Part shown: one piece after another, positions 1,637 to 20,303 of the stretch
Layout: the number at the start of each line of letters is the position of its first letter
Numbering within the stretch: the first letter of the stretch is position 1
Source of the DNA: Candidatus Zixiibacteriota bacterium
GTDB taxonomy: Bacteria > Zixibacteria > MSB-5A5 > CAIYYT01
Length of the DNA stretch: 20,303 nt
Assembly (NCBI GenBank): GCA_040235515.1
Contig: JBECKX010000053.1
Span: forward strand, 1 to 20,303
Direction: 5' to 3'
Made by a program: the position numbers and the translations under genes
The notes under the pieces: generated by a model
The model's input: the letters and a program-made list of their open reading frames with translations, nothing else
Databases searched by the model: none
Told to the model about the DNA's origin: nothing

Positions 1637-1681
1637 AAAACAGAAACGGATCGACGGTTTCCCGCCGATCCGTTTGTTTTT
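1637..1681. terminator. Probable bidirectional rho-independent terminator between convergent pepA and the TolB-like gene
   Basis: Stem AAACGGATCG (1644-1653) / CGATCCGTTT (1666-1675), with an A-rich run upstream and GTTTTT downstream. Confidence 0.75.
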
Positions 1682-1771
1682 CTCATAAAGCGTGGTGTCA
1701 GCCTGAAAGTATGAATCGCTTTAGTATTAGCTTCAAAAGTATCAGCTTCAAATGCAGCTATAGCTGCTGTT

Positions 1772-2755: not shown

Positions 2756-2883
2756 ACTTCTCCTCGTATTTTCAGTTACTCGTTGATTTCTACAATTGCG
2801 TCAGTATTTTGCGACCGGAAGGCCGTTTCTCAACCACTCATGCTATTGTACCCAATAGCCACCGTTAGTTTCAGATTATCGGT

Positions 2884-2911
2884 AACTTATTGATTCTGTT
2901 TAAGATGTCAA
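2884..2911 (-). promoter_or_regulatory. Putative sigma70 promoter for the TolB-like gene, overlapped by an IHF-consensus site
   Basis: Minus strand TTGACA (2911-2906), 16 nt, TAAGTT (2889-2884). AATCAATAAGTTA (2895-2883) matches WATCAANNNNTTR. Confidence 0.45.
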
Positions 2912-2945
2912 TTGCAAAGGGAGGGTCGGCGGGGCTCCGGGCTAT

Positions 2946-3722
2946 CTATTTACCCAGCCGTTCCGGCAGCTCGGCAATCGATTCCAGGATGTCGTCCGGC
3001 TTGGTAGCGAGCTTTTTCAAGTCGCTCTTGCGGAACTTGCCGCTGTTGACGAGGACTCCACGGATTCCGATTCGCTGGGCGCCGCCGACATCGTTCTCGA
3101 TATCATCCCCAACCATCACGAGCTGCTGCGGCGGCAGTCCCAATTCCGCCAGTACCTGGTCGAAGTAAGATTGAGATGGCTTGCCGATGAGAGTCGATTG
3201 TTTGCCGGTAACATACTCCAGCCCGACGATAAACGCGCCGATGTCGAGTTTGAGCGTATCCTCCGATTTCCAGTATTTCCCCTTGTGCATCGCGACCAGC
3301 TTGGTATCACCCATCAGCGAGTTGAAGAGCTGAGACATCAATTCGTAGTTCCACGCATTCCCGATATCGCCGATGACAATCACCTCGGGGTTTTTCTCAT
3401 CCTGCTCGAATTCGGAGAATTCGCGCTTCGTGTCCTCACGCATCAACAGCCGGCAGCGCCGGTAGCCATTCTTACGCAGGTAGCGGGCAGCCGCAACCGG
3501 CGCCGTAAAGAAATCGGAGGCTTCGACATCGAAGCCGTGCTGGTTCAGCTGTGCGGTGAGAGTAACATTTGATTTGGTCGTGGTATTGGTACAGATGCGA
3601 AACGGTATCCCCTCCCGGCGCAGATATGCAATCGCCTCGGGCGCGCCCTCCAGCGGCTCTCCGTCGATGGTGAGTACGCCATCGAGGTCAATCAATACGC
3701 CGTGTATTTCTTTCCATTCCAT
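2946..3722 (-). CDS. HAD-superfamily subfamily IIA hydrolase (LHPP/HDHD2-like phosphatase)
   Basis: Motif I DLDGVL, motif II CTN, motif III IGKP, motif IV VGDDIENDVGGAQ. 258 aa. Confidence 0.9.
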   Translation of the reverse strand: MEWKEIHGVLIDLDGVLTIDGEPLEGAPEAIAYLRREGIPFRICTNTTTKSNVTLTAQLNQHGFDVEASDFFTAPVAAARYLRKNGYRRCRLLMREDTKREFSEFEQDEKNPEVIVIGDIGNAWNYELMSQLFNSLMGDTKLVAMHKGKYWKSEDTLKLDIGAFIVGLEYVTGKQSTLIGKPSQSYFDQVLAELGLPPQQLVMVGDDIENDVGGAQRIGIRGVLVNSGKFRKSDLKKLATKPDDILESIAELPERLGK

Positions 3723-3960
3723 CTGCTCTGACCCCTGATTTCACTCGCCGGTTGAACGGCGACGGTCGCTCATGCACTGGTCCTTAAATCTGTTGGTTTT
3801 ACCTTCAGAATTACTTAAATACAGCCGTTATGCACAACAAGGAAGTGTGCCGAGAAATGCTCGGCTGTTTCCGCCGATTCGTTGTGCCCCGTTTTCTGAG
3901 TAGTTAGCCAACTACGAATATTATCGGGCATCTTTGGAATAAACTCAAGGCAAAGAGACG

Positions 3961-4959
3961 ATGTTGAATTTTCACACCATTCGCTGGATTGACGGGGCCG
4001 TTGAAATCCTTGATCAGACGAGACTGCCCGAACGGGAGGTCTACCTCAAGCTGACCGACTACCGTGAAGTGGTCGAAGCGATCAAATCGTTGCGGGTCAG
4101 GGGAGCGCCGCTGATCGGAATCGCCGCTGCTTATGCGGTTGTGCTGGCTGCACGTTCGTGCCGCAACAAGGTCGAGTTCGCCATTGCGATCAATGAGATC
4201 AAATCCGCGCGTCCGACAGCCGTAAACCTGAGCTGGGCGGTCGAGCGGATGCTGATCAACTACCACGCCTACGCACATCGCCCCGACTTGACGGAGCAGA
4301 TGCTCGCAATCGCCAGACAAATCCATAGTGAAGATGAACGGATGTGCGAACAGATCGGTGTCAACGGCATGGGGCTGATGCCGACCACCGGTTCGGTGCT
4401 GACTCATTGCAACGCGGGTGCTCTGGCCACAGGAGGAAGCGGAACGGCCCTCAGTGTGATCTACCACGCGCAAAGCTCGGGCAAACGTCTGCGGGTCTTT
4501 GCGTGCGAGACGCGGCCCGTGCTGCAGGGCGCACGACTGAGCGCGTGGGAACTGGCGCGCGAAGGAGTGGATGTCACTGTGATCACCGACAATATGGCGG
4601 GTTACCTGATGTCGCTGGGCATGATCGACTGCGTGATTGTCGGCGCTGACCGAATCGCAATCAACTACGATGTCGCGAACAAGATCGGGACCTATACTCA
4701 CGCCGTGCTGGCCAAGGAGCACAACATTCCATTCTTCGTTGCGGCGCCAACGAGCACATTCGATAATCGAGTGGCTTCGGGGGTGGATATCGAGATCGAA
4801 CAGCGCGACGCTTCCGAGGTCGCGCGCTGCGGCACCAAGCAACTGGTTCCCGACTCTGTGAGGATTCTCAATCCCGCCTTCGATATCACGCCGAGGGAGT
4901 TGATTACCGCGATTATTACTGATCAGCAATTGATCAAGTGCGGACGCTGGACCGATTGA
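3961..4959 (+). CDS. mtnA: S-methyl-5-thioribose-1-phosphate isomerase
   Basis: LDQTRLP, VRGAPLIG, RPTAVNL, LTHCNAGALAT, ETRPVLQGARL, VGADRIA, ANKIGTY and NPAFDITP motifs. Confidence 0.95.
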   Translation: MLNFHTIRWIDGAVEILDQTRLPEREVYLKLTDYREVVEAIKSLRVRGAPLIGIAAAYAVVLAARSCRNKVEFAIAINEIKSARPTAVNLSWAVERMLINYHAYAHRPDLTEQMLAIARQIHSEDERMCEQIGVNGMGLMPTTGSVLTHCNAGALATGGSGTALSVIYHAQSSGKRLRVFACETRPVLQGARLSAWELAREGVDVTVITDNMAGYLMSLGMIDCVIVGADRIAINYDVANKIGTYTHAVLAKEHNIPFFVAAPTSTFDNRVASGVDIEIEQRDASEVARCGTKQLVPDSVRILNPAFDITPRELITAIITDQQLIKCGRWTD

Positions 4960-4997
4960 GGTTCGTTGAGCGGCCGGGGTACAAAAGGAAGGCGCGA

Positions 4998-6890
4998 CTA
5001 GCTTGTCTCAGATTCTTCCGTTTTGAGCTCAGGAGTTGAGCGGAGGTTCGCCTCCTCGATCTGGTTATCGAAGAAATCCCGCACGGCTTTCGCGGTGGCA
5101 CTGTGGCGCACGATCTGATTGATCTCTTCCAGCGAGGCGGAACTGATAGCTTCTATCGACGGGAAAGCCTTCAGCAGGAGTTCCTTTCGCTTCGCCCCGA
5201 CCCCCGGGATTGAGTCGAGCAGCGACTTCGCCGTCTTCTTGTCACGCAGCTTTCTATGATAGGTGATCGCAAATCGATGCGCCTCGTTGCGAACCTGCTG
5301 CAGCAGTTTCAGCGAAGCTGATGTCTTTGGCAGGGTCAACATATGTTTCTCCTGCGGCAGGACCACCTCCTCCAGCCGCTTGGCCAGTCCACAAATCTGC
5401 TGATCTTCGACCCCCAACTCATCCAATGCAGCGAGCGCCGCATTGAGCTGTCCGCGCCCGCCATCGATCAGGCACAAGTCCGGCGAGTCGGCCTCCTCAG
5501 CCAGAACGCGGGTGAAGTAGCGGGAAACGATTTCGCGCATCATGGCGAAGTCGTCCTGTCCTCCTACGGTCTTGATCCTGAAATGCCGGTAGTTGGCCTT
5601 GAGCGGTTTGCCATTGCGGAAGTACACCATCGAGCCGACCGGGTTGGTCTCGCCGAGGTTGGAGATATCGAATGCGCAGATGTCGACCGGCGGTTTGCGC
5701 AGGTAGAGATCCTTTTGCAGTGCTGCGATGGCATGCGGGAGCTTGGAAGAGCGTTCCTGCTTCTGGCGCACCAATTCGCCCAGCAGCAGCCGGGCGTTCG
5801 ACTCCGCCATCTCGACGATGCGTGCCTTCTCACCGATCTGCGGGAACTTCAGGTCCACGCGGCCGCCCCGTTTCTCGGTCAGCCAGGAGCGAATGACCGC
5901 CTCATCCTCCGGTTTGTACGAGCTGTAGATTTCCTCAGGAATCTGCGAAGCGCTCACATAATATTGCTTGAAGAACTGTTCGGCGATTTCGGTTTCACCG
6001 TCTCCTTTCCCGGTCCGCAGGTGGTAATTCTGTCGACCGATCAACAGACCTTCCCGCAATTGCAGCACGACCGCCGAGCAGTCATCGTCCGAGCGGGCAA
6101 AAGCGATGATGTCGCGATTGCCGCCCTCCACGTCGGAGACTTTCTGTTTCTGCATTACAGACTTAATTGCGGCAATCTGGTCGCGCACGCGGGCGGCCTC
6201 TTCGTAGTCCTGGCGTTCGGAGAGCTGTATCATTTCAGACTGCAACTGCTCGATCAGGCTGGCGGTCTTTCCCTGCAGCAGTTTGAGCACCTTCTGTACT
6301 TCCAGGTCATATTGCGCTTTACTCACAAGGGCTTCACAGGGGCCATCACAGCGCTTGATATGATATTGCAGACATACCTTGTACTTGCCACCACCCTTCG
6401 GATGAGGGATCTTCAGTTTGCAGTCGCGCAGTTTGAAGAGTCGCGAGATCATGCGATACATCTCGCGCATCGCTCCGGCGTTGGCGAATGGTCCGAAGTA
6501 GATGCCGTCGGGGCGGTCGTTACGACGGGTGACGATCAATCGGGGAAAATCGTCATCCTGCGTCAGCTTGAGATAGGGAAACCGCTTATCATCCTTGAGA
6601 TTCACGTTGTAGCGCGGCCGATGCTTCTTTACCAGGTTGGCTTCAAGTATCAGCGCCTCGATCTCATTGTCGGTTACCATCAACTCGAAGTCAGCAATCT
6701 TGCGTTTGAGCGCGGCGGCTTTTGGATTTGACTCATCAACGCTGCTGAAGTAGGTCCGTACCCGGTTACGCAGGCTCTTGGCCTTACCGATATAGATGAT
6801 CTTCCCCCGGGTATCCTTCATCAGGTAGACGCCGGGTTTGCCGGGCAGATCCTCCAGCTTCTGTTTTAACTCGGGGCTGATATTGCTCAT
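4998..6890 (-). CDS. uvrC: Excinuclease ABC subunit C
   Basis: GIY-YIG N-terminus (PGVYLMK..IIYIGKAKSLRNRV), Cys cluster, UVR motif (YEEAARVRDQI), RNase H-like FDISN / DDFAMM / LIDGGRGQL, RNEAHRFA, and HhH (IPGVGAKR). Confidence 0.98.
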   Translation of the reverse strand: MSNISPELKQKLEDLPGKPGVYLMKDTRGKIIYIGKAKSLRNRVRTYFSSVDESNPKAAALKRKIADFELMVTDNEIEALILEANLVKKHRPRYNVNLKDDKRFPYLKLTQDDDFPRLIVTRRNDRPDGIYFGPFANAGAMREMYRMISRLFKLRDCKLKIPHPKGGGKYKVCLQYHIKRCDGPCEALVSKAQYDLEVQKVLKLLQGKTASLIEQLQSEMIQLSERQDYEEAARVRDQIAAIKSVMQKQKVSDVEGGNRDIIAFARSDDDCSAVVLQLREGLLIGRQNYHLRTGKGDGETEIAEQFFKQYYVSASQIPEEIYSSYKPEDEAVIRSWLTEKRGGRVDLKFPQIGEKARIVEMAESNARLLLGELVRQKQERSSKLPHAIAALQKDLYLRKPPVDICAFDISNLGETNPVGSMVYFRNGKPLKANYRHFRIKTVGGQDDFAMMREIVSRYFTRVLAEEADSPDLCLIDGGRGQLNAALAALDELGVEDQQICGLAKRLEEVVLPQEKHMLTLPKTSASLKLLQQVRNEAHRFAITYHRKLRDKKTAKSLLDSIPGVGAKRKELLLKAFPSIEAISSASLEEINQIVRHSATAKAVRDFFDNQIEEANLRSTPELKTEESETS

Positions 6891-6897
6891 TACAGAG

Positions 6898-6927
6898 AAA
6901 TTACGTTCAACTTGGCGCCGCTGTCAA
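6898..6927 (-). promoter_or_regulatory. Putative sigma70 promoter of uvrC (leaderless geometry)
   Basis: TTGACA (6927-6922), 18 nt, TAATTT (6903-6898), then 7 nt to the ATG at 6890. No SD visible. Confidence 0.5.
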
Positions 6928-6976
6928 TGTTGTGTCGATGTTAAGCAGGGTGGTATGAAGAAAAGGTGCCAACAGT

Positions 6977-7603
6977 TTACTTGACCCGCCGCGCCCCGGC
7001 GTAGGATGTGGCATAATACTCGTCGGTCAGGTCGTCCACCACCACGCCGCGCGACTCGGACGCATGCACAAACTTGTAGTTTTCGAGGTACATTCCGACA
7101 TGGGAGACCTGCCTGCCGGAGAGTCGGAAGAAAATCAGATCGCCGTAGGAAAGGTCATCGAATTCCACACGGTCATTGAGGCGGTAGAGTGCCTCGGTAG
7201 AGAGCGGAAGACGGGTGCCATCATAGTCGCGGTAGATCACATACATCAATCCTGAGCAATCGATCCCGGCGCGACTGGTTCCGCCGCGGCTGTAGGGTGA
7301 TCCGAGGAAATTGGCGATGACACGATTCATGCGCGCGCGGTCGATTTCACCGGTGTAATCGTGCGACGTTGCGGAGTTCTTCTCAGAGTTCTTTTGAGAC
7401 GTTGAAGCTGCCTCAGACTTGTCGGCAGTCTTTCGCGCTGACTTGTCAGAGTCCCTGGCTGGATGCCTGCCGGGCGGGGGATTATTTTTCGATTTCTCTT
7501 TCGCGCGCTGTTGCTGCTGACCCGGATGATCGCTGTAGCGCACCGCCGCCGTGCAAGAGAGCAGCAGGGAGAGCGTTACAACGATGATGCCGGCGAACTT
7601 CAT
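6977..7603 (-). CDS. NlpC/P60 (C40) peptidoglycan endopeptidase lipoprotein
   Basis: True start is MKFAGIIVVTLSLLLSC (lipobox Cys) at 7603, with an ATGA overlap with the upstream stop and SD GGGAGG. Low-complexity linker, then LGSPYSRGG, GIDCSG, GDLIFF, SHVGMY and FVHAS catalytic motifs. Confidence 0.9.
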   Translation of the reverse strand: MKFAGIIVVTLSLLLSCTAAVRYSDHPGQQQQRAKEKSKNNPPPGRHPARDSDKSARKTADKSEAASTSQKNSEKNSATSHDYTGEIDRARMNRVIANFLGSPYSRGGTSRAGIDCSGLMYVIYRDYDGTRLPLSTEALYRLNDRVEFDDLSYGDLIFFRLSGRQVSHVGMYLENYKFVHASESRGVVVDDLTDEYYATSYAGARRVK

Positions 7604-8568
7604 TGTTTGCTGCCTCCCGAGAGGGCAGGGTAGGTCATTCCGAATCGCTTCGAATAGTAGACCCGCGTCACCAACAGGGTGACCAGAAGCAGGATCAGAT
7701 AGAGCGGGAAAAACAATGCTGCGAAGACCGAGAGAGACAAGATTGCGATCTTGCTCGCGAGAACCGCTATCTCCACCGACTTGCGCATCGCCGCGACGAT
7801 ATAGATCGGAGCAGTTATGCCGGCGGTGATGGCAAAGCTGTAGTCTGCCGCCATGATTGAAAGGATCAGGGCGAGAACCACCATCCACGCTGCATTCCCG
7901 ATGGTTCGCGGAATCCCCCACTCGACGGCATACGTAATCTTACCGACTCTGGCATCGCCTTCGATATCTGGAAGGGTTGTGGTCAGATAGACCGCCCCGA
8001 CCGCAAAGACGTATGGGAGCGACTTGAGGACTCCCTCTAAGTCGAATGTGTGGCAGACGACCCAGCCGAATAAGAACGCCAGCATGCCGTGGCCGAGAAG
8101 ATTATTGCGAAACGCCTTGTAGGCGTTCTCGCGTACCTTGAAGCGTGGATATGAATACTGAAAACCGATCAGTGCACCAATAACGAAGAGCACACCGAGC
8201 TGCCAGTTGACGACAAATGCGCCGACAATCGAGATCAGCGTCATCGTCCAGTAGAGCTTGGTTGCCTCGGATTGCGAGATATGTCCCTCTGCGAGCAGAA
8301 ACAGTTTTCCGTTCGCCTTGTCGGTGTCGATGTCATGAATCTGGTTGAGGATAAAGATGCCGCCTGCCAGCAGGGTTCCGAATAGAAGTGTCAGCAGCAG
8401 GTTCAAATCCAGCGGCGTGAACGACGCAAAGGGGAAATGGTCCAGCTGAAAGATCCCGGTGCCGCGATCACGCCAGAGAGCGGCGCGCGCACCTAGCAGG
8501 GAGATGGTCCAAACCGGAATGATCAGCATCGGTCGCATGAGAAAGATGTAATCGAGTAGCTTTTTCAT
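7600..8568 (-). CDS. UbiA-family membrane prenyltransferase (substrate unknown)
   Basis: Multiple TM segments, N-terminal LMRP, Asp-rich motifs NQIHDIDTDKAN and LPDIEGDARVGKIT, and YSYPRFK motif. Confidence 0.85.
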   Translation of the reverse strand: MKKLLDYIFLMRPMLIIPVWTISLLGARAALWRDRGTGIFQLDHFPFASFTPLDLNLLLTLLFGTLLAGGIFILNQIHDIDTDKANGKLFLLAEGHISQSEATKLYWTMTLISIVGAFVVNWQLGVLFVIGALIGFQYSYPRFKVRENAYKAFRNNLLGHGMLAFLFGWVVCHTFDLEGVLKSLPYVFAVGAVYLTTTLPDIEGDARVGKITYAVEWGIPRTIGNAAWMVVLALILSIMAADYSFAITAGITAPIYIVAAMRKSVEIAVLASKIAILSLSVFAALFFPLYLILLLVTLLVTRVYYSKRFGMTYPALSGGSKQ

Positions 8569-8603
8569 AGTTTATCGATTCCTGAGCTGAGGTTCACTTA
8601 AGT

Positions 8604-8632
8604 AGTATGAACGGCGCCTACCGGGGTTTCAA
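8604..8632 (-). promoter_or_regulatory. Putative sigma70 promoter for the UbiA-NlpC/P60 unit
   Basis: TTGAAA (8632-8627), 17 nt, CATACT (8609-8604), about 35 nt upstream of the ATG. Confidence 0.4.
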
Positions 8633-8676
8633 CAAAAATATGGGGATTTTGCGCCAAACGAGTCGGCGCCGGTCTG

Positions 8677-9501
8677 TTAACAAAACCACTTGAGATAAAG
8701 GTAAAGCAGCGGCGCTGCGAACACCAGCGAGTCGAAACGGTCGAGAATGCCGCCGTGGCCGGGGATGATATTGGATGAGTCCTTGACTCCCATCTCGCGT
8801 TTGAAGATCGATTCCGCCAGGTCGCCGAGCTGTCCGAAGAAGGCGATGATCAGCCCGGGGGCGATTAAGTTGAGAAATCCCACCTGCTTGAGAAAGATGA
8901 AATTGAAAATTCCGGCTGCAAGGATTGCTCCACCAAGTCCCCCGATGAAGCCAACCACAGTCTTGTTCGGGCTAATGGCGGGAGAGAGTTTTGCGTTACC
9001 GAATTTCCAACCGAAGAAGTAGGCGGCGGTATCGGCAATCCAGAGGGTCGCGAAGAGATAGACAAGCCAGCCACCACCGGAACCGCCGACGTCCGAGGTG
9101 ATCTGCGGAATCAGCAGCATGGTCGCGAAGCCGATGGTTAGATAGAACAGCGACAGCAACGTCAATCCCATAGTCCTGCTGACATCACCAAGCTCCCTGG
9201 TGAAGGTGTGCGGCAGAGTCGCGAAAATCATGGTGGCGATGATCGCCTCGACCAGATACCTGCTCTCCAATTGCTGGATTGAATATGGAACGAACAGCGC
9301 CGGAATAATCAGCAAGAGCTTGTGCCACAACTGCAATCGGAGACCGGTCAGGGTGAAGAACTCCCAGAGTGACATTGCAAGCAGCACCTCGATCAGGATC
9401 AGCAGCGGCCAGCCGCCCGCGAGACAGATATAGATAAGGATCGGGATGAAAATGACTGCGACCAGCAGTCTGAGTGCGAGATTGCGCGAGATCAACGCCA
9501 C
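8677..9501 (-). CDS. cdsA: Phosphatidate cytidylyltransferase
   Basis: Polytopic membrane protein with DTAAYFFG, ISPNKT, GDLAESIFKR and KDSSNIIPGHGGILDRFDS signature. Follows uppS. Confidence 0.97.
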   Translation of the reverse strand: MALISRNLALRLLVAVIFIPILIYICLAGGWPLLILIEVLLAMSLWEFFTLTGLRLQLWHKLLLIIPALFVPYSIQQLESRYLVEAIIATMIFATLPHTFTRELGDVSRTMGLTLLSLFYLTIGFATMLLIPQITSDVGGSGGGWLVYLFATLWIADTAAYFFGWKFGNAKLSPAISPNKTVVGFIGGLGGAILAAGIFNFIFLKQVGFLNLIAPGLIIAFFGQLGDLAESIFKREMGVKDSSNIIPGHGGILDRFDSLVFAAPLLYLYLKWFC

Positions 9502-9515
9502 GTCGTTACAGGCTC

Positions 9516-10268
9516 CTAGAGCTTCCCGAAGCGGCGTTCGCGTTTTTGATAATCAAGGATTGCGCGCAGAAATTCGGCTTCGCTGAAGTCTGGCCAGAGT
9601 ACCGGTGTGATGTACAACTCCGTGTATGAAGTCTGCCACAGCAGGAAATTCGACAACCTTTGCTCACCCGAAGTTCTGATCAGCAGATCGGGATCGGGCA
9701 GGGGATAGGTGAAGAGATAACGGGAGAACAGTTCCTCATCGACATCTTTGAGGCGAATATTCCCGGATTTGTAGTCCTTTGCGATCTGCTTCACCGCTTC
9801 GAGTATCTCTGTTCGACCACCATAGTTCAATGCCAGGTTGAGCACCAGCCCGGTATTGGCCGCGGTCTTGCGAATAGCCTGTTCGATCGCCTTGCGGCGG
9901 GAGAAGGGAAGTTCCTCGATTTGTCCCGTAACGATCAGGCGAACGTTGTTGGCGATCAGATCATCCAGTTCGGCGCGGGCGGTATCGGTGAGCAGCTTGA
10001 AGAGGAAGTTGACCTCCGAGCGCGGGCGTTTCCAATTCTCGACGCTGAAAGTGTAGAGTGTCAGATAGGGGATTTCGAGTTGACCGCACGCCTCAACGAT
10101 GCCGCGAGCGGCTTTGACGCCGGCCTTATGGCCATCCGAGCGTTTCAGTCCACGCTTGTTGGCCCAGCGGCCGTTGCCATCCATAATGATGGCGACATGC
10201 GCGGGTAGCTTCTCGTGTGAGATTTTCTCGCGGAGAGAGTCTGTATCGGGGAGAGTTGACGAGGTCAG
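9516..10268 (-). CDS. uppS: Undecaprenyl diphosphate synthase (cis-prenyltransferase); start probably a non-canonical CTG at 10268
   Basis: LPAHVAIIMDGNGRW, YTFSVENWKRP, ALNYGGR and PDLLIRTSGEQRLSNFLLWQ. The frame is open upstream of ATG 10184 to a stop at 10281-10283 with no ATG/GTG/TTG. Identity is secure; the start is inferred. Confidence 0.93.
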   Translation of the reverse strand: MTSSTLPDTDSLREKISHEKLPAHVAIIMDGNGRWANKRGLKRSDGHKAGVKAARGIVEACGQLEIPYLTLYTFSVENWKRPRSEVNFLFKLLTDTARAELDDLIANNVRLIVTGQIEELPFSRRKAIEQAIRKTAANTGLVLNLALNYGGRTEILEAVKQIAKDYKSGNIRLKDVDEELFSRYLFTYPLPDPDLLIRTSGEQRLSNFLLWQTSYTELYITPVLWPDFSEAEFLRAILDYQKRERRFGKL

Positions 10269-10822
10269 ACCTCCATCACCTCATCTTCTTTGCTCTTCGT
10301 CAGAGCGTCGATTTCAGCAATATACTTGTCGGTTAAGTCTTGTGCGTCGATCTCACCGTTGCGGCGGGCATCCTCTGAGATGTCGCCATCCTTCTCACCC
10401 TTGCGCAGGTGGTCGATCATATCGCGCCGGATATTCCGAACCGCAATACGGGCATCCTCAGCCATCTTGCTGACCAGCTTCACCATCTCCTTGCGACGTT
10501 CCTCGCTCAGAGCCGGCACCGGCACGCGCACTACCTGGCCATCGGACTGCGGGTTAAGGCCGACGTTGGCTTTCTGAATCGCTTTGACGATTTCACCTGC
10601 CAGTTGCTTTTCGTACGGCTGAATGACAATCAACTGTGCTTCCGGAGTCGCCAGGGTCGCCACCTGGTTGAGCGGCGTCTCCGCACCATAATATTCTACT
10701 TTGATATCATCGAGCATGTGGATATTCGCTTTGCCGGAACGCACAGTTCCGAAATGCTGTTTCAGGTTGGCGACGGTCTTTTTCATTTTACCGTCGGCGT
10801 CAGCTTTTAGCTCCTTCAGCAT
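10265..10822 (-). CDS. frr: Ribosome recycling factor
   Basis: RSGKAN, VEYYG, GLNPQSDG, PALSEERRKEMVK and AVRNIRRD. 185 aa, SD GGGAGGA. Confidence 0.98.
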   Translation of the reverse strand: MLKELKADADGKMKKTVANLKQHFGTVRSGKANIHMLDDIKVEYYGAETPLNQVATLATPEAQLIVIQPYEKQLAGEIVKAIQKANVGLNPQSDGQVVRVPVPALSEERRKEMVKLVSKMAEDARIAVRNIRRDMIDHLRKGEKDGDISEDARRNGEIDAQDLTDKYIAEIDALTKSKEDEVMEV

Positions 10823-11010
10823 TGCTTATCCTCCCGATCAACTAACGATTGTTTGAAATAGTGGTTTGATCTGTCGCCACGCCTGCAATCTCCGCACCAC
10901 CATGTGATGCCGACGCTGCCACCGATCGGCAGTCACTCCTGCGACCTATCTGTGGTACTTCGTTGCGCGACAAAGAAATTCTGCCTCAGTTGAGCGCAAC
11001 ACTCGGAAAC

Positions 11011-11730
11011 TCAGTTGGTAACCCTCGTTCCCACGTCTTCCCCCATTACGACTTTACGCAGATTCCCCGCCTCGGTCAACTTAAAAACGATCAACGGCAA
11101 TTCGTTCTCCTCCAGCAGAGTGAATGCCGTGCCATCCATCACCTTCAGGTGACGTTTGAGCGCCTCGTCATAGGTAAGTTTCTCGAAACGCCTGGCATTC
11201 GGATTCGTCATCGGATCGTCATCGTAAACGCCGTCCACCTTCGTGGCCTTGAGAACGACATCCACTTCGGTCTCGACGCCGCGCAACACGGCAGCGGTAT
11301 CGGTGGTGAAGTAGGGGTTGCCGGTCCCGGCGGCCATGATCACTATGCGACCCTTCTCCATATGACGAATCGCGCGCCGCCGGATGTAGGTCTCGGCGAC
11401 CGCTTCGATACGAATAGCACTGAGTACCCGGGTGAAGAGTCCATGGTTTTCCATGGTGGATTGCAGCGCCATCGCGTTGATTACGGTGGCGAGCATGCCC
11501 ATGTAATCACCGGTGGCGCGTGTGATACCCATTTCGACACCGGCCGTCCCGCGGTGGATATTTCCGCCACCGATGACGATGCCGATCTCGACGCCCTTCT
11601 CCTTGATTGCTTTTACTTCTTGAGTGACAAATTCCAGTTGCTGCGGATCGATTCCGAAGCCCTGCTCTCCGGCGAGTTGTTCACCGGAGAGCTTGAGCAG
11701 GATTCTCTTATAGGCAGGGTCATCCGCCAT
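11011..11730 (-). CDS. pyrH: UMP kinase
   Basis: RILLKLSGE, IGGGNIHRG, DYMGMLAT, GTGNPYFTTD and KVDGVYDDDP. Its ATG directly abuts the tsf stop. Confidence 0.98.
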   Translation of the reverse strand: MADDPAYKRILLKLSGEQLAGEQGFGIDPQQLEFVTQEVKAIKEKGVEIGIVIGGGNIHRGTAGVEMGITRATGDYMGMLATVINAMALQSTMENHGLFTRVLSAIRIEAVAETYIRRRAIRHMEKGRIVIMAAGTGNPYFTTDTAAVLRGVETEVDVVLKATKVDGVYDDDPMTNPNARRFEKLTYDEALKRHLKVMDGTAFTLLEENELPLIVFKLTEAGNLRKVVMGEDVGTRVTN

Positions 11731-12324
11731 CTATTCACCGACCAGGAATCTGGCGAAACGGCTGACCGAAATATTCTCGCCCAGTTTGGCGATCGTGGCG
11801 GTGATGTAATCCTTGATCGTGATATCAGGATCTTTGACGTACTGCTGTTCCATCATGACGACTTCAGAGTAGTACTTCTCGATTTTGCCATCCACGATCT
11901 TATCGATGATCTTCTCAGGCTTGCCTTCGTTGAGAGCCTGGTGACGGTACACTTCACGCTCCTTCTCGAGCAGTTCGGTGTCGAGTTCCTCGCGATTCAC
12001 CACCAGAGGGTTGGCCGCGGCGATATGCATCGCCAGGTTGCGGACCAGTTCGCGGAAGTCGTCGGTGCGGGCGACGAAGTCGGTCTCGCAGTTGACTTCC
12101 ACCATCACGGCGAGTTTGTCACCCTGATGAGTGTAGGTGCCTATCAGACCCTCTTTGGTCTCGCGCTCAGCCTTCTTGGCGGCCTTGCTGATCCCGCGCT
12201 CGCGCAGGATCGTAATCGCCTTATCCATGTCACCATCTGCTTCGACCAGCGCCTTCTTGCACTCCATCATGCCGGCGCCGGAGCTTTCGCGCAGTTGTTT
12301 TACCTGATCTGCAGTGATAGCCAT
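11731..12324 (-). CDS. tsf: Translation elongation factor Ts (short form, 197 aa)
   Basis: Start [13 protein letters not shown] at 12324. [21 protein letters not shown] and RFARF motifs. Confidence 0.97.
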
Positions 12325-12349
12325 TTCTATTACTAATCCTTCCTCAAAT

Positions 12350-13171
12350 CTAATCGTCAGTGTCGGCTGAATCGTTGTTACCGTCGGCTGACTCTGCGCT
12401 TTCACCCGCAGAGGCGGCCTTTTCGGTCGCAGCCGGCTTCTGCTGTTGTTTGGATGCTTCAATCATCGCCTGTTCGGTGTCGTCCGCGAGTCGCTGCTGC
12501 GCTTCCAAAATCGAATCGGCAATGCGCTTGGTGATCACCTTGATCGACTTGATGGCATCGTCGTTGCCTGCGATCGGGAAGTCGATCGGGTCGGGATCGG
12601 AATTTGTATCAATGATACCGATGATCGGTATCCCGAGTTTGCGGGCTTCCGCAACAGCGATTTTCTCTTTCTTGCAGTCGACGACGAACACGAGTCCGGG
12701 CAGACGGTTCATTTCGCGAATCCCGCCGAGCACCTTGTTGAGCTTCTCGTGTTCGCGGGAGAGCATCGAGATTTCCTTCTTCGAGATTTTCTCGAACGTG
12801 CCGTCCTGCTCCATCCGCTCGATATCTTTCAAACGCTTGATATTGCGCTTGATCGTCTGGAAGTTTGTCAGCATCCCACCCAGCCAGCGCTCCGTGACGT
12901 AATATTGGCCGCTGCGCTGCGCTTCAGCCTTCATCACTTCCTGAGCCTGCTTCTTGGTGCCGACGAAGAGCACATACTGATTCCGCGAAATCACCTCATT
13001 GACCTTACGGCAGGCGACTTTGAGTGAATCGAGTGTTTTGTTGAGATCGATGATATAGATGCCGTTCTTGGCGGTGAAGATGAACTTCTTCATCTTCGGA
13101 TTCCAACGGCGGGTCTGGTGTCCGAAATGGACGCCAGCTTCGAGAAGGTCACGAACTGTGACTTCAGCCAT
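12350..13171 (-). CDS. rpsB: 30S ribosomal protein S2
   Basis: [35 protein letters not shown] and GNDDAIKS. Acidic low-complexity C-terminal tail. Confidence 0.99.
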
Positions 13172-13189
13172 GCAGTACTCCTGAAATTT

Positions 13190-13307
13190 CGGTTAATCCT
13201 CCGCTCGGATCAACTCTGCATTGGACCGGGACTGCAGGGAAGTATGCCGCAGCGAAAGGGCACGCTGTTCCCTGAAGACCACCCGGGCAGATCCCCGAAC
13301 GTGTGTC
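13190..13307 (-). promoter_or_regulatory. rpsB 5' leader, S2 autoregulatory RNA (t44-like)
   Basis: Minus strand ACACACG...CCGGGTG...CGGAGGATTAACC parallels the E. coli t44/S2 leader (ACACACG...GGGGTG...GGAGGCATAACC). Pairings CGTTCGG/CCGAGCG and TCTGC/GCAGA, with inner stem CAGGGAA/TTCCCTG (13235-13274). Confidence 0.8.
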
Positions 13308-13439
13308 GTTACTCAATCTATGACTTAAAGCCGTCGCGACGGCTCCACCGTAGTTGTGGCGCTCGGTACACGACAGACTCAAGCTCAAATCAAAATAGTT
13401 GGTGGCGCCAACCGCAGGCTGACGCCGCAACCCTGCTGC

Positions 13440-13475
13440 ACTGGTATCGTTACCGGTATCGCTACCAGTATCGCT
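13440..13475. repeat. 3 x 12-bp tandem repeat that also forms a 30-bp imperfect palindrome, just downstream of rpsI
   Basis: ACTGGTATCGTT ACCGGTATCGCT ACCAGTATCGCT. 13440-13469 matches its own reverse complement at 26/30 positions. Confidence 0.7.
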
Positions 13476-13479
13476 CCGT

Positions 13480-13872
13480 TTAACGCTTCGAGAACTGGAA
13501 GCGCTTGCGGGCTTTCACCTGACCATACTTCTTGCGCTCAACCATGCGAGCGTCACGGGTCAGCATCCCGGCAGCTTTCAGCGGGCCGCGAAATTCCGGA
13601 TCGAACTTTGCCAGCGCGCGCGCCAGAGCATGTCTGATTGCGCCGGCCTGCCCGGAGAGTCCGCCGCCACGGGCGCGAATCTTGACATCCAGACGACCCT
13701 CCATCTCAACCGTCTTGAACGGTTCGGTCGCGTGAGTTACCAGCGACTCGCGAGTAAGGTAGGGGAGTAGTTCTCTTCCGTTAACTTCGACTTTGCCAGA
13801 TCCGGCGGAAATCCAGAGACTTGCGACGGCGTTTTTCCGTCTGCCGGTGGCATGAATTGCTTCGGTAGCCAT
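13480..13872 (-). CDS. rpsI: 30S ribosomal protein S9
   Basis: TGRRKNAVA, GGGLSGQAGAIRH, LTRDARMVERKKYG and C-terminal QFSKR. Confidence 0.99.
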   Translation of the reverse strand: MATEAIHATGRRKNAVASLWISAGSGKVEVNGRELLPYLTRESLVTHATEPFKTVEMEGRLDVKIRARGGGLSGQAGAIRHALARALAKFDPEFRGPLKAAGMLTRDARMVERKKYGQVKARKRFQFSKR

Positions 13873-14425: not shown

Positions 14426-14466
14426 ATAATACGAACCGACAGCCTTTTGTCAAGAGGCTGTCGGTT
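14426..14466 (-). promoter_or_regulatory. Putative rplM promoter embedded in an inverted repeat
   Basis: TTGACA (14453-14448), 16 nt, TATTAT (14431-14426). Arms AACCGACAGCCT (14434-14445) / AGGCTGTCGGTT (14455-14466) flank the -35. Confidence 0.65.
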
Positions 14467-14554: not shown

Positions 14555-15187
14555 CTATGCTCCCGCGCAGGCAGCACAGGGATTCGGGCCGCCGCCGAAG
14601 ATATAGTTGATGATATAGACCGCGTCTCCGATGATAACCAACCCGTCGCAATCGACATCCCCGGAGGAAAGCGGGTTTGGCGCCGGTCCGCCGGCAAAGA
14701 TGTAGTTCACGATGTATACGGCATCTGTGATAATCACCAGGCCGTCTCCATCGACATCACCGCAAACGAGGCCTGCGCCCCCACCGAAATCTTGCCAGAA
14801 ACCGCTGTTAAGCATGAAGTTAGTCGAAGTTGAGGGTCCAGCGACCGTCTGACCGATCGTACCATTCAGCATGAAATTGGTGGAGGTCATCAATCCGCCA
14901 CCGGATGAGATAACATCCCAGTTGATCTCTTCGCCGGCCTGCGGTCCGGCTGGAAGCTGTGTAGCGCCCGGAGTCGAACCGGGGTTGGTAGCTGATTCTC
15001 CGGTAGTCGTTGTCGGGAGGGAAGATGCGGGAGTATCGTTCTTTTTTGCGGCAGGTGCGGTCGTCTCTGTGGCTTTACCTGATGCAGCTGCTGCAGCCTT
15101 CTTCTGAGCTCCGAGCAACGGTACAGCAGCAATCAGAGCTGCGCAGAGCAAGAGACTCAGAGATAGTCGCAAATGGAGGGATCGCAT
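14555..15187 (-). CDS. Secreted protein: signal peptide, Ala/Thr/Pro linker, 'INW..SGGG..GTIGQ..GFW' domain and C-terminal dockerin-like domain
   Basis: Hydrophobic N-terminus. Duplicated calcium-loop/helix units GDVDGDGLVIITDAVYIVNYIF and GDVDCDGLVIIGDAVYIINYIF with 4 Cys. SD AAGGAG. Confidence 0.8.
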   Translation of the reverse strand: MRSLHLRLSLSLLLCAALIAAVPLLGAQKKAAAAASGKATETTAPAAKKNDTPASSLPTTTTGESATNPGSTPGATQLPAGPQAGEEINWDVISSGGGLMTSTNFMLNGTIGQTVAGPSTSTNFMLNSGFWQDFGGGAGLVCGDVDGDGLVIITDAVYIVNYIFAGGPAPNPLSSGDVDCDGLVIIGDAVYIINYIFGGGPNPCAACAGA

Positions 15188-15228
15188 GATTGAAGTTCTC
15201 CTTGATTATAGATCAATATAATGCAAAT

Positions 15229-16824
15229 TCAGTTTTCTGCAAGCATTTCGAGCAGTTCCTCAAGCTTCTCCACGCGCTCTTTCAGCGCGATAGTTTCCGC
15301 CCGGTTGGCTGCCAATGCCGACTTAAGTTCTCGATTTTCCGCTATCAACTCTTTGACCGCCGCCAGCGCGACACCTGCTACATCCCCAGCTGCGAGGTAG
15401 TTGTTAACCCTCTCGCCGGTCTCTTCATCGATCGTGCCAACTCCGAAGGCTGCGACGAACTCTTCGGCGTAGGGCCCGATATGGTATTCATCAGATTCGC
15501 GGTAACTCCAGCCTTCAATGTTTAAGGACTCGATTGCGTCGAAGAGTTGCTGCTCGTTAAGGGGCGTGAAGTTCTCTTTGAATTCCCTGGAGGAAGCATT
15601 GGTCCAGACACCGCCGGCCGTAAGGTGCGCACCGTTGCCGTTGGAAGTACCGGTGCCGACATGTATGGGATAGCTGATCGGCCCGTCGTCGTTGTCGCGA
15701 TTGAGGGCAAGACGCCCGTGTGACGGGCCATCGAAAAAATTGATAATTCGAGTTGCACCCCGCTGGTTGACGTTTTGTCCAAAGGTCAGGACGTAGTTCG
15801 AGGGCGCGCCAAGAAGATCGTAGATGCCGCAGTTGCTCCCGCCCAATATCGTACTGTAGGCCCCATTGTTTTGATTCGTACTGCCACCAACAATTGCAGA
15901 GTATGAATCTGAGAGCGTATTGTTGCCGCCACCCAGAATCGACGATCGCTCGCCATTACATTGGTTGCCTATGCCCCCGAGAATGCTGGAATAGGTGTTA
16001 CTGGACAAATTATTGGATCCTCCGGCAATAGCGGATGATATCCCGGATGCGGTATTCCCGTAACCGCCGCCGATCATAGAGTTGTCGCCAGTCACTACGT
16101 TTCCGACACCTCCTGCAACGACGGATGCGAAACCATCAACCTCATTATTGACACCGCCTCCTACCGTGGTGTAGGAACTAATCGCAGTGTTATCATATCC
16201 ACCGCCGATTGTGGTGAAATACCCCGTTGCCTGGTTTAGGTACCCTCCACCAATATGGGCACGCCGATTTGAAGCGACGTTGTCAGTACCTCCTGTGATT
16301 GACGAATAGACGCCTGTGGCTGAATTGTTCGCGCCGAACGCAATTCCGGTACTGTCGCCCAACACGTTCCCGGTACCCACACTCAAACCTTCCTCAACGG
16401 TGAGAATACCGGATATCAATCCACCGCCGCTGCCATCCACCGTTTCTACCCTCCGCGCGAACGGAACCGACAGGAGTCGCTGACGCGGGGAGGTTTCCGT
16501 GCCTCCGTTGATTTTGATCGCGAAGAATAAGTCATCAGTGGCGAAAAGTCCGGACGTCAACGCAGAAGACTCCCCGAGGATAACATTGAACAAGCCATCC
16601 ACCACAGCCACACCCACATGGCTCTCGCTCCAGAGCGATGACCCACCCACAGGCACGTCGTACAAGAAGAACTCGAGGTTGTAACTTCCGGTCAGCGGGT
16701 CTCCGTTGGCATCGGAGAGACGCCCTTGATACTTAATCTGCTGCGGTGTAGCCGCCACCATCGTTGTCAACCTGAGTATGAAGAGCAATGTTAGTAATGT
16801 CACGCTCAAGCGTTTGGCGTTCAT
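15229..16824 (-). CDS. Secreted fibre-like protein, paralog A (YQGRL domain, 11 x 15-aa Gly repeats, Peptidase_S74-like chaperone, coiled coil)
   Basis: Signal peptide and IKYQGRL. Repeats S-x-I-x-GG-x-x-N at about 15811-16305. WTNASSREFKENF (Ser+5 Lys) and HIGPYAEEF, then a heptad-like C-terminus. Confidence 0.8.
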   Translation of the reverse strand: MNAKRLSVTLLTLLFILRLTTMVAATPQQIKYQGRLSDANGDPLTGSYNLEFFLYDVPVGGSSLWSESHVGVAVVDGLFNVILGESSALTSGLFATDDLFFAIKINGGTETSPRQRLLSVPFARRVETVDGSGGGLISGILTVEEGLSVGTGNVLGDSTGIAFGANNSATGVYSSITGGTDNVASNRRAHIGGGYLNQATGYFTTIGGGYDNTAISSYTTVGGGVNNEVDGFASVVAGGVGNVVTGDNSMIGGGYGNTASGISSAIAGGSNNLSSNTYSSILGGIGNQCNGERSSILGGGNNTLSDSYSAIVGGSTNQNNGAYSTILGGSNCGIYDLLGAPSNYVLTFGQNVNQRGATRIINFFDGPSHGRLALNRDNDDGPISYPIHVGTGTSNGNGAHLTAGGVWTNASSREFKENFTPLNEQQLFDAIESLNIEGWSYRESDEYHIGPYAEEFVAAFGVGTIDEETGERVNNYLAAGDVAGVALAAVKELIAENRELKSALAANRAETIALKERVEKLEELLEMLAEN

Positions 16825-16846
16825 GGCCTATCCTTTATTTCTTTGG

Positions 16847-18361
16847 TTATTGCTTTGCCAACTTGTTCTGTAGAATAATCTCTTCGAGCTGCCCAATCCG
16901 TTGCTCCAGCGAGCGGTTCTTCTCGATCAGTTCCTTTACCGCCGCCAGCGCGACCCCGGCGACATCACCGGCAGCAAGGTGAGTGTTCACTCGTTCACCA
17001 GTCTCTTCATCGATCGTGCCAACTCCGAAGGCCTGAACGAACTCCTCAGCATAGGGGCCGATGTGGTATTCATCAGAACTGCGGTAATTCCAGCCCTCAA
17101 TGCTCAGTGATTCGATTGCGTCGAGGAGTTGCTGCTGCTCAAGTGGTGTGAAGTTCTCCTTAAACTCTTTCGAGGAAGCGTTGGTCCAGACGCCGCCAGC
17201 CGTCAAACGTGCGCCATTACCATTAGCAGAGTTGGTGCCGACGTGGATGGGATAGCTTGCTCCGCCATCCGTGCCGTCGCGGTTGAAGGCGAAGCGGCCA
17301 TGGTTGGTGCCGTCGAAGAAACCGACGATCCTCTGAGCGCCCCCCCAGTCCACATTGTCCCCGAAGATCAGAGAATAGGAAGAGGGTGCTCCCAGATTGT
17401 CGGTGATTGAGCAAAGGGTGCCTCCCAAAATAACACTGTAGCTGCCCGAGTTTGTATTCTGTGCGCCACCGAGAATGGTAGCATATGAATCGAAGCAGTC
17501 GTTGTGGGAACCGCCAAGAACGAAAGAACTTGAGCCTGTGCATTGATTGTTGCTGCCGCCGAGGATAGCTGAAGCATCTCCCGTAGCATGGTTGTTGCTT
17601 CCTCCAAGTACGCCTGAGTAATTCGCAGTAGCCGAGTTGAATTGCCCACCCCCGACTATCGATCCATTTCCCGACGCAATGTTGTCGGATCCTCCTACTA
17701 CGGCTGCCCGGAAGAAGCTGGCTTCGTTTGCAGATCCACCCGCAATAGTTGCCGTATTGGCGAGTACCTTGTTAAAACTTCCACCGCCAATGTGCGAGTA
17801 TTTCCCCGTTACTTCATTCTGATATCCACCCGCGATAGATGAATAAGAATCGGTAATGGAATGTCGATATCCTATTGCTGCGGTTGTGCTGTCAAAGATT
17901 GTATTGTCCCGACCAACCATTAGACCTTCCTGTACAGTGAGAGGTGTTGTTATGACTCCGCCACTGCTGCCATCGACGGTTTCTACTCTCTGCGAAAACG
18001 GAACGGAAAGGAACTGCTGGCGAGGAGTGGTCTCAGCGCCACCGTTGATCTTGATTGTCAGATACAATTCATCAGCCGCGAACAGGCCGGTCGATAATGT
18101 GGATGTCTCCCCAAGTACAACGTCAAACAAACCATCTACTGCACTCACTCCGAGATGACTCTCGCTCCAAAGTGAGGAGCCGCCGACGGGAACATCGTAT
18201 AGGAAGAATTCGAGATTGTAGGTGCCAGTCAGGGGATCGCCGTTAGAGTCAGCCAGTCGGCCCTGGTAGCTAAGCAGTCGAGGGACTCCTGAGGCTATCC
18301 CTGATAAAAGCAATACAGCAAGGAAGATAGGTATGGATGTTGAGCGAATCTGATGTAGCAT
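16847..18361 (-). CDS. Secreted fibre-like protein, paralog B (10 x 15-aa repeats, S74-like chaperone)
   Basis: Start moved to ATG 18361 (SD AAGGAG 7 nt upstream). LSYQGRL, repeats at about 17393-17842, WTNASSKEFKENF and HIGPYAEEF. Confidence 0.8.
   Translation of the reverse strand: MLHQIRSTSIPIFLAVLLLSGIASGVPRLLSYQGRLADSNGDPLTGTYNLEFFLYDVPVGGSSLWSESHLGVSAVDGLFDVVLGETSTLSTGLFAADELYLTIKINGGAETTPRQQFLSVPFSQRVETVDGSSGGVITTPLTVQEGLMVGRDNTIFDSTTAAIGYRHSITDSYSSIAGGYQNEVTGKYSHIGGGSFNKVLANTATIAGGSANEASFFRAAVVGGSDNIASGNGSIVGGGQFNSATANYSGVLGGSNNHATGDASAILGGSNNQCTGSSSFVLGGSHNDCFDSYATILGGAQNTNSGSYSVILGGTLCSITDNLGAPSSYSLIFGDNVDWGGAQRIVGFFDGTNHGRFAFNRDGTDGGASYPIHVGTNSANGNGARLTAGGVWTNASSKEFKENFTPLEQQQLLDAIESLSIEGWNYRSSDEYHIGPYAEEFVQAFGVGTIDEETGERVNTHLAAGDVAGVALAAVKELIEKNRSLEQRIGQLEEIILQNKLAKQ
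17226..17305. repeat. 80-bp exact repeat, copy 1 (in paralog B)
   Basis: Identical to 20224-20303 by direct comparison. Confidence 0.9.
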
Positions 18362-18384
18362 TGTCTGCTCCTTCACGGAACCGG

Positions 18385-19812
18385 CTATCTATGAGCCAGC
18401 GTATTCTGATTTATTTTCTTTTCCAGTTGTTCGATGCGAAGCTCCAGCGCGCGGTTTTTCTCGATCAGCTCTTTCACCGCCGCCAGCGCGACCCCGGCAA
18501 CATCACTAGCCGCCAGGTGACTGTTGACTCGCTTGCCGGTGTTCTCATCAATTGCTCCAACGTCGAAAGCTCTAATGAATTCTTCAGCATACGGGCCGAT
18601 GTGGTATTCGTCTGAGTTGCGGTAGTTCCAGCCCTCGATGTTGAGGGACTCGATTGCGTCGAAGAGCTGCTGCTGATCTAGTGGAGTGTAGTTTTCCTTG
18701 AATTCTTTGCTTGAGGCATTTGTCCAGACACCGCCATTGGTAAGATAGGCGCCGTTACCATTTCCGCTGGTGGTGCCCACCTGGAACGGATAGCTGAAGA
18801 CACCGGCATCAGAGTCGCGATTGATCGCAACCCGTCCTGATGAAGTTCCTTCGAAGAGTGCCACTACCATGTTCTGATTGATCAGATTGACGTTTGAACC
18901 GAATACCATGCAGTACGATGTAGTCCCAAGAAATGGCAGGATACTGCAATTCGAGCCTCCCATAATTGTGCTGTAGACTCCATTGTTAACGTGATTTGCC
19001 CCCCCTACAACAGCGCTGCCCGTTTCAAGAGACTTATTCCCGCTGCCGCCCAATACCGCTGAGACAATCCCGACAGCCTCGTTGGCACTTCCGCCCGCCA
19101 CCACACTGGATAGCCCGGTTGCAGAGTTGTAGAATCCGCCGCCAACCGTCGAATTCTGCTCATCGGTACTATTGCCGTAGCCTCCTCCGATCACGTCATA
19201 AAGCCCCCGAACGTTGTTAGAAGCTCCACCACCAATGTGGGAGCCATCGGCGCTTACAGTGTCGGCTGAACCGCCGGTAACTGAGCTGTAGGATCCAGTA
19301 CAAGCCTGTTGGAAGCCTATGGCCGCGGAGGCCGTACCCGACACGAGATTGCTTGAGCCTGAATTCAGTGTGCCCGATATTTTGACGTCACTTGTTATTT
19401 GGCCGCCGCTGCTACCGTCTACGGTCTCGACTCGTTGGGAATATGGAACGGAGAGAAGTTGCTGACGATTCGTGAGTTCGGCGCCACCATCTACCGTGAT
19501 TCCAAGGAATAAGTTGTCGGTTTGGAATAGGTCCTGGGGGAAGGGGGTTGCCCCACCGAGGATGACGCTAAACAGTCCGTCGGTGCAGTCGGTCCCGAGA
19601 TGAGTTTCAGTCCAGAGGGGGGCTCCACCACTGGGAACATCGTATAGGTTGAACACTAAATCGTGATTACCATTGAGAGCGTCCCCGTTGACGTCGGACA
19701 AACGCCCTTGATAGTTGACTAAGTCGGGCGCTGCATAGACTGGTGCTGTTGAAGTCAGACACACGATTGCCGAGATCAGTAACACTACAGAAACCCAAGA
19801 TGAGCCTTTCAT
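18385..19812 (-). CDS. Secreted fibre-like protein, paralog C (8 x 15-aa repeats, S74-like chaperone)
   Basis: Signal peptide ending VYA-A, VNYQGRL, repeats at about 18928-19287, WTNASSKEFKENY and HIGPYAEEF. SD GAGGA. Confidence 0.8.
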   Translation of the reverse strand: MKGSSWVSVVLLISAIVCLTSTAPVYAAPDLVNYQGRLSDVNGDALNGNHDLVFNLYDVPSGGAPLWTETHLGTDCTDGLFSVILGGATPFPQDLFQTDNLFLGITVDGGAELTNRQQLLSVPYSQRVETVDGSSGGQITSDVKISGTLNSGSSNLVSGTASAAIGFQQACTGSYSSVTGGSADTVSADGSHIGGGASNNVRGLYDVIGGGYGNSTDEQNSTVGGGFYNSATGLSSVVAGGSANEAVGIVSAVLGGSGNKSLETGSAVVGGANHVNNGVYSTIMGGSNCSILPFLGTTSYCMVFGSNVNLINQNMVVALFEGTSSGRVAINRDSDAGVFSYPFQVGTTSGNGNGAYLTNGGVWTNASSKEFKENYTPLDQQQLFDAIESLNIEGWNYRNSDEYHIGPYAEEFIRAFDVGAIDENTGKRVNSHLAASDVAGVALAAVKELIEKNRALELRIEQLEKKINQNTLAHR

Positions 19813-19823
19813 TCGATTATCCT

Positions 19824-20303
19824 CTACTTGCCAGAAGTAGTCTGCGCTAACCGAGAGTCGCTTAACAACTTCTCGATCCGAGCCAGGCGCTCTTCAAGCT
19901 GGTTGATTCTTTCAGTTTTCTTTATTAACTCTTTGACCGCTGCTAGAGCCACCCCAGCTACGTCACTAGCCGCGAGATGTGACGTGACACGCTCTCCCGT
20001 CACTTCATCAATCGCACCGACATCAAATGCCTCTACGAACTCCTCGGCATAGGGACCGATGTGGTATTCATCTGAGTTGCGGTAATTCCAGCCCTCTACC
20101 TTTAGTGACTTTATAGCATCCAGGAGTTGTTGCTGATCAAGGGGCGTGTAGTTTTCCTTGAGTTCTTTACTCGAGGCATTTGTCCAGACACCGCCGGCAG
20201 TCAAACGTGCGCCGTTGCCGTTGGCAGAGTTGGTGCCGACGTGGATGGGATAGCTTGCTCCGCCATCCGTGCCGTCGCGGTTGAAGGCGAAGCGGCCATG
20301 GTT
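19824..20303 (-). CDS. Fibre-like paralog D, C-terminal part only (gene runs off the window edge)
   Basis: Frame open to the window edge: NHGRFAFNRDGTDGGASYPIHVGTNSANGNGARLTAGGVWTNASSKELKENY, followed by the same S74-like domain and coiled coil. Confidence 0.8.
   Translation of the reverse strand, partial: NHGRFAFNRDGTDGGASYPIHVGTNSANGNGARLTAGGVWTNASSKELKENYTPLDQQQLLDAIKSLKVEGWNYRNSDEYHIGPYAEEFVEAFDVGAIDEVTGERVTSHLAASDVAGVALAAVKELIKKTERINQLEERLARIEKLLSDSRLAQTTSGK
20224..20303. repeat. 80-bp exact repeat, copy 2 (in paralog D; may extend beyond the window)
   Basis: Identical to 17226-17305. Confidence 0.9.

Follow-up and report, generated by a model that had tools for sequence, protein, structure and literature searches.

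The small secreted protein encoded at the end of the fibre operon described here is likely a mounting adaptor, and we put the probability of this reading at about 0.6. A module of about 50 residues in this protein, which we call GFW, would take hold of all three N-domains in a trimeric fibre, and through its dockerin tail the protein would attach the fibre to the cell. We favour this reading because GFW genes adjoin fibre genes in many phyla and carry each time an end tag typical of the lineage; both the binding of the N-domain by GFW and the tethering to the surface we infer from the sequences. The fibres themselves add new members to a kind already known, and the GFW partner is the new part. 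We found no published account of such an adaptor in the open-access literature, subscription papers being outside the scope of this search. The candidate bears on a question left open by the paper on the related mosaic adhesive trimers (MAT), the prey-grabbing fibres of Bdellovibrio, namely what holds the fibres on the cell. The candidate has 50 residues and predicts a clear stoichiometry, three repeats for one trimer, which makes the mounting testable with two small recombinant proteins. If the reading is right, it would account for the display of phage-like adhesins without tags in many phyla that are mostly uncultured, a very common class of tiny "sorting-domain-only" proteins would acquire a function, and fibres could be put on bacteria in a modular manner.

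The window, that is, the whole stretch of 20,303 nucleotides that was analysed, is the entire contig C84. It contains housekeeping genes ending with rpsB–rpsI–rplM and then, on the minus strand, the fibre genes and a gene for a protein of 210 aa, the candidate adaptor (14555–15187). The fibre unit ends at a sigma-70-like promoter upstream of rplM (14426–14453, minus strand, 11 of 12 positions matching). The complete fibre genes, all on the minus strand, are F1 (15229–16824, 531 aa), F2 (16847–18361, 504 aa counted from the ATG) and F3 (18385–19812, 475 aa). F4 (19824–20303, minus strand) is present with its C-terminal part; its reading frame is open at the contig end and the N-terminal part lies on contig C62. 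The earlier note had described tandem co-oriented paralogs with short gaps, and this description holds for three complete genes and one partial gene, with intergenic gaps of 11, 23, 22 and 41 nt and GGA/GAGG-type Shine–Dalgarno motifs in front of the reading frames.

The window end and the start of C62 overlap by 82 identical bases, and C62 carries, besides the N-terminal part of F4, one non-S74 fibre, one S74 fibre and the S74-type tail of a seventh. Since the end of C84 continues into these genes, the array comprises at least seven fibres. An exact repeat of 80 nt common to F2 (17226–17305) and F4 (20224–20303) is the likely cause of the contig break. Between these two genes the neck and the loop are 87–100% identical, and the repeats are only 41% alike, so that the pair appears as a mosaic; the 80-nt stretch is likely also a sign of recent exchange between the paralogs. 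The exact gene order at the F4 join is not certain because in one public contig F2 passes into F4 through this repeat.

The candidate adaptor consists of a signal peptide, a long low-complexity linker rich in Ala, Thr and Pro, the GFW module (aa 86–131; 14795–14932, minus strand) and a tail with a twin calcium-binding dockerin (aa 142–210; 14558–14764, minus strand), which is matched by Dockerin_1 (PF00404) with 29.2 bits at a cut-off of 22.9. Three close homologs of the protein carry a name, and all of them are from the candidate division Zixibacteria, from which we take the host to be probably a Zixibacterium. The GFW module is built from three pseudo-repeats of 19 residues, and the octamer TSTNFMLN recurs at this spacing. 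The offset of 19 has a z value of 4.6, which none of 200 column shuffles reached, and comes out best in 76 of the 117 sequences; the motif used for searching does not force it. Four GFW-dockerin reading frames and a divergent fifth on contig C119 are found in the genome, three of the five directly following a fibre gene and two standing alone. With the GFW profile 6449 clusters were retrieved at E <= 0.001, and some GFW proteins carry two or three modules.

AlphaFold2 modelled the isolated GFW module with low confidence (pLDDT 58). When one N-domain and one GFW module were predicted as a complex, the values were 0.17 and 0.13, below the mark of 0.32, and speak neither for nor against binding; they cover the 1:1 arrangement, which is probably the wrong stoichiometry given the triple repeat in GFW.

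The fibres could be assigned to a published superfamily. Caulton et al. (2024; PMC10769870) describe 21 MATs in Bdellovibrio bacteriovorus, which have a signal peptide, a beta-rich domain that is conserved and ~130 aa long, and S74 or non-S74 tips. The sections of this paper used here also describe surface display, list MATs from FCB, PVC and OP3 bacteria (Table S3) and call the surface element to which the MAT N-domain binds unidentified; the excerpts of a 2026 review (PMC13689555) name no partner for this domain. The Bdello_MAT_N model NF053851 matched the YQGRL N-domain in all seven fibres scanned (E 1e-5 to 2e-9). The NF053851 scores, 23–38 bits, lie below the cut-off of 60 bits; of 24 matches in the genome, the best of which has 42.1 bits, none exceeds it, and 14 control genomes gave no match. 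Judged by these profile scores, the window fibres are distant members of the MAT superfamily and lie outside NF053851 as curated. The earlier note had put the fibres forward as a candidate undescribed system, and for the fibres this part of its proposal has to be given up.

Like the Bdellovibrio fibres, those studied here have a signal peptide followed by a beta-rich N-domain, occur as many paralogs, end with or without S74 and vary at their tips. They are shorter (380–770 aa, compared with mostly 630–1660 aa), their N-domain scores below the NF053851 cut-off, and the window fibres have an S-S-x-x-x-K dyad motif and a UspA1-like repeat shaft. Furthermore, the tandem arrays end here in a GFW-dockerin gene, which is absent from the description in the sections of PMC10769870 drawn upon, and the host, unlike Bdellovibrio, is not known as a predator.

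Genome-wide we count 30 reading frames with the N-domain. All 30 have a signal-peptide-like start compared with 139 of 2000 random interior positions, the call being a hydrophobicity heuristic and not SignalP. The conserved N-domain of ~100 aa lies directly behind this start (in F1 at 16459–16749, minus strand) and is predicted as an all-beta, Ig-like sandwich with a pLDDT of 86. Foldseek found no relative of this model in the PDB at E <= 0.001, and the best structural match was VIA with a Z of 7.7. Sequence searches of the PDB with the N-domain and GFW profiles returned nothing significant; in the ESM Atlas the N-domain finds unnamed clusters alone, and the scores for GFW stay below 0.9.

Behind the N-domain, the Gly-rich repeat region matches the head of Moraxella UspA1 (PDB 3PR7, E 1.9e-21), with a spacing of mostly 15 residues, as in the Gly-rich 15-residue repeats of UspA1 (3PR7, 3NTN). 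Unlike UspA1 the fibres lack a C-terminal beta-barrel anchor: their chains end in S74 and a coiled coil, and a search for the YadA anchor in the fibres scanned gave no match.

Peptidase_S74 is found above the Pfam cut-off in all four fibre reading frames of the window (25–33 bits, cut-off 22). The predicted Ser–Lys dyad of F1 is S411/K416 (15577–15594, minus strand), and F2 and F3, which share the architecture of F1, have the motif at 17159–17176 and 18697–18714, respectively. Ser and Lys are five residues apart in this motif as in the dyads of MyRF (S587/K592) and endoNF (S911/K916), for which we refer to the material taken from PMC8326128. Self-cleavage by S74 has been demonstrated for a Bdellovibrio MAT, according to the part of PMC10769870 used here. 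The window fibres thus resemble the ICA chaperone of endoNF and MyRF (PF13884) in an S74 domain above cut-off, the spacing of Ser and Lys and the C-terminal coiled coil, and they differ from the phage chaperone in being cellular, in their signal peptide, in the missing virion context and in the replacement of the usual Asp after the Ser, which gives S-S-x-x-x-K in place of S-D-x-x-x-K. S74 is optional among the N-domain proteins of the genome: ten of the 30 have the cleavage motif, six have a DHPLDP-type end and the remainder end differently. The list of S74 motifs holds 11 reading frames, one of which is the F4 fragment without N-domain, hence the count of ten.

The fibres are likely exported, self-maturing and trimeric proteins of cellular origin, as the earlier note had proposed; its statements on the secretion signals, the S74 domains, the repeats, the coiled-coil ends, the dockerin tail of the partner and the missing barrel all agree with the searches described above. 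The S74 domain, the UspA1-like repeats and the coiled coil point to a trimeric, surface-exposed and adhesive state.

The dockerin is not specific to the fibre system but is a genome-wide tag: it occurs in 116 reading frames, in 102 of them within 25 aa of the C-terminus. None of the genome's 30 fibres carries a dockerin or a T9SS tag. The genome also encodes SprA and two secretins, and it gives 34 matches to the T9SS signal and five to cohesin, two of the cohesin proteins bearing a dockerin and a T9SS signal as well. As such proteins exist and the fibres have no tags of their own, a cohesin scaffold exported by T9SS is a plausible landing site. The arrangement recalls a cohesin–dockerin assembly (PF00404/PF00963) in the C-terminal twin calcium-binding dockerin and in the presence of cohesin-like domains in the genome, those on contigs C24, C40 and C193 among them. 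It departs from one in the numbers, 116 dockerin reading frames facing five cohesin matches, and in the cargo, which is a short peptide and not an enzyme.

In the mechanism that we propose for the adaptor, Sec would export both fibres and adaptor. Trimerisation would be driven by S74 together with the coiled coil, and subsequent self-cleavage, in F1 before S411, would expose the tip. Fibre and adaptor would then form a 3:1 complex with one 19-residue repeat for each protomer, and the dockerin of the adaptor would dock on a cohesin-bearing surface protein. The five adaptors of this genome could in this way serve 30 fibres with different tips and provide an interchangeable adhesin repertoire.

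A motif scan of GTDB, of which seven of 64 parts were read, yielded 122 loci, and we estimate the total at about 1300 stretches. According to the record titles, some of which look mislabelled, the loci come from Chloroflexota, Planctomycetota, Verrucomicrobiota, Bacteroidota and allies, Zixibacteria, Eisenbacteria, Marinimicrobia, Acidobacteria, Lentisphaerae and Pseudolysobacter; Bdellovibrionota appears in the title of none of the 122. The linkage was counted for 80 GFW reading frames with flanks. The 42 loci without flanks (L130–L171) were left out, the duplicates L058 and L120 were dropped, and L115 was kept in the 80 and is probably a chance match of the motif. A co-oriented N-domain gene was found within 5 kb in 52 (non-iterated profile) to 56 (iterated profile) of the 80, counts that are not independent since kin share loci. 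The background, taken from ten genomes hand-picked among the motif-bearing ones, is 45 N-domain matches in ~43 Mb, or ~1% per 10 kb. This neighbourhood survey bears out the association expected by the earlier note. A fibre marker lies at most 700 nt from the GFW reading frame in 50 of the 80. Among the 30 non-adjacent reading frames, ten run into the end of their contig within 1.5 kb, and 24–28 of the 80 have no fibre gene in their locus. In locus L068 the N-domain and GFW appear fused; here one domain lacks its end and the other its start, and we rejected this candidate as a probable deletion or misassembly.

Among 151 genomes of the phylum the N-domain was found in 147 and GFW in 133, and the four genomes without N-domain are also without GFW. 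Fourteen genomes have one to three N-domain genes and no GFW match; in five of these we checked seven loci, two of which have a GFW-like gene, divergent in sequence, directly after the fibre. In the class of a Saprospiraceae record the N-domain occurs in 74 of 121 genomes, one unpublished genome being included in this tally. A sample of 30 N-domain loci from Bacteroidia had a small T9SS-tagged protein directly upstream in eight, with a divergent GFW peptide recognisable in seven, and a GFW-like gene downstream in two further loci.

The tails of the GFW proteins differ between lineages. Sixty of 126 GFW reading frames were scanned, and the T9SS signal TIGR04183 was found in 11 and a dockerin (PF00404 or NF041540) in 18. 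By eye, Chloroflexota have a short YLP-type tail, Verrucomicrobiota a domain ending in FYRL and Pseudolysobacter the end FFNGFE, all of which we take to be sorting tags. These tails also admit a different role for the GFW protein, that of an export or folding factor which would hold the N-domains in the periplasm and hand the fibre to a secretion system, the fibre then being released or anchored otherwise. T9SS signals are normally removed after export, the GFW protein of T9SS lineages comprises little beyond the peptide and the secretion signal, and the fibres bear no tag of their own, all of which would suit such a factor. We nevertheless consider this role unlikely, as in other lineages the tails resemble anchors (the dockerin, or a hydrophobic C-terminal segment seen by eye in P0014/P0131) and as a long linker precedes the GFW module in the window adaptor. 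With GFW as a mounting adaptor, its signal in the T9SS-tagged lineages would likely also carry or anchor the untagged fibre.

A wider form of the adaptor reading, to which we give somewhat less than even odds, is that GFW would serve universally as a "tag-lending" clamp, its pseudo-three-fold peptide capturing any MAT-type trimer and routing it to the export or anchoring pathway of the lineage, be it T9SS, dockerin, the tails of Chloroflexota and Verrucomicrobiota or perhaps the Pam pilus tip of CPR bacteria. For Pam we have a lead only: the pam neighbourhood of CPR bacteria has a conserved tail-fibre-like gene, as described in the portion of PMC13278184 used, and the PamT model NF058579 matches GFW proteins weakly, with E 0.002–0.008 in five of 60. 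On the GFW module the PamT scores are 14–18 bits, far from the cut-off of 240; a match of 13.6 bits spans positions 39–78 of 241. If the wider form were true, phage-like fibres would be secreted piggy-back and put on display in plug-in fashion in ten phyla or more, and GFW would be the surface element that is missing from the picture of the Bdellovibrio MAT system.

The weak PamT matches could also be read as a sign that the GFW protein, though co-regulated with the fibres, does not contact them and is a surface protein in its own right, such as a short beta-strand filament that assembles itself; stand-alone GFW genes and proteins with two or three modules would fit such a filament. We think this improbable, because the close adjacency to fibres is kept in many phyla with different tags, because none of the 151 genomes of the phylum has GFW without the N-domain and because the three-fold repeat fits a trimer.

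That the array is a tail-fibre cassette of a prophage, tailocin or eCIS, as the matches of the S74 and repeat regions to the phage tail fibre phrog_1980 (E 1e-6 to 3e-10) might suggest, is largely refuted, in this genome over the sequence as far as C62; the earlier note, too, saw no phage genes. None of 50,697 phage records matches the N-domain, and the N-domain proteins start without exception with a signal-peptide-like segment. In viral contigs a single GFW motif was found, as against an estimated 1300 or so stretches in genomes. No sheath gene was found in the 100%-complete genome, and in four of four relatives the array is flanked by a GNAT/dockerin-protein region and by rplM–rpsI, with no phage genes seen. 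The relatives have three to seven fibre genes, whose ends differ, and beside rplM the same gene for a GFW-dockerin protein. Thus the site and the GFW-dockerin partner are constant among the four, and it is the fibres that vary.

Six fibres of the genome (on contigs C110, C121, C169, C192 and C20; loci L007, L010, L013, L016 and L017) end in a conserved C-terminal domain of about 130 aa, the DHPLDP-type domain, which occupies the position taken by the S74 domain in other fibres. A Pfam search of the six fibres gave no match to this domain, nor did NCBIfam and PHROG searches, in which two fibres were scanned. In the fibre arrays of relatives (L203–L205) DHPLDP-type ends predominate. Possibly the domain is a second type of trimerisation chaperone.

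Some fibres depart from the common architecture in other ways. In an ORF of 217 aa on contig C163 (L006:1274–1924) the N-domain is joined directly to the S74 domain without a shaft, reflecting an internal deletion or a misassembly within a fibre array. The fibre at L014:524–2749 (contig C19) has a shaft of repeated Asp-rich DSDGDGVP-type motifs in place of the UspA1-like repeats and ends in an S74 domain resembling the window type. At L066:5384–8398 a 1005-aa N-domain protein adjoining a GFW gene carries, as judged by eye, its own dockerin-like C-terminal tail and appears to be a self-tagged fibre.

Cohesin-like sequences were also found in the genome. A 286-aa ORF (C193:10055–10912) with a cohesin match has, by eye, a cysteine in a lipobox-like context and may anchor dockerin-tagged proteins to the membrane. 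The tandem proteins at C24:652–5630, in which cohesin-like domains are accompanied by a dockerin and by a T9SS signal, could form a surface scaffold.

Within the window array an exact 80-nt repeat is present in two identical copies (17226–17305 and 20224–20303), through which a single public contig connects the fibre genes F2 and F4; the junction in that contig reflects a recombinant allele or, alternatively, the path taken by the assembly. The genes at 50–13872, whose translations were read by eye, are ordinary housekeeping genes: pepA, TolB-like, HAD hydrolase, mtnA, uvrC, NlpC/P60, UbiA-like, cdsA, uppS, frr, pyrH, tsf, rpsB and rpsI.
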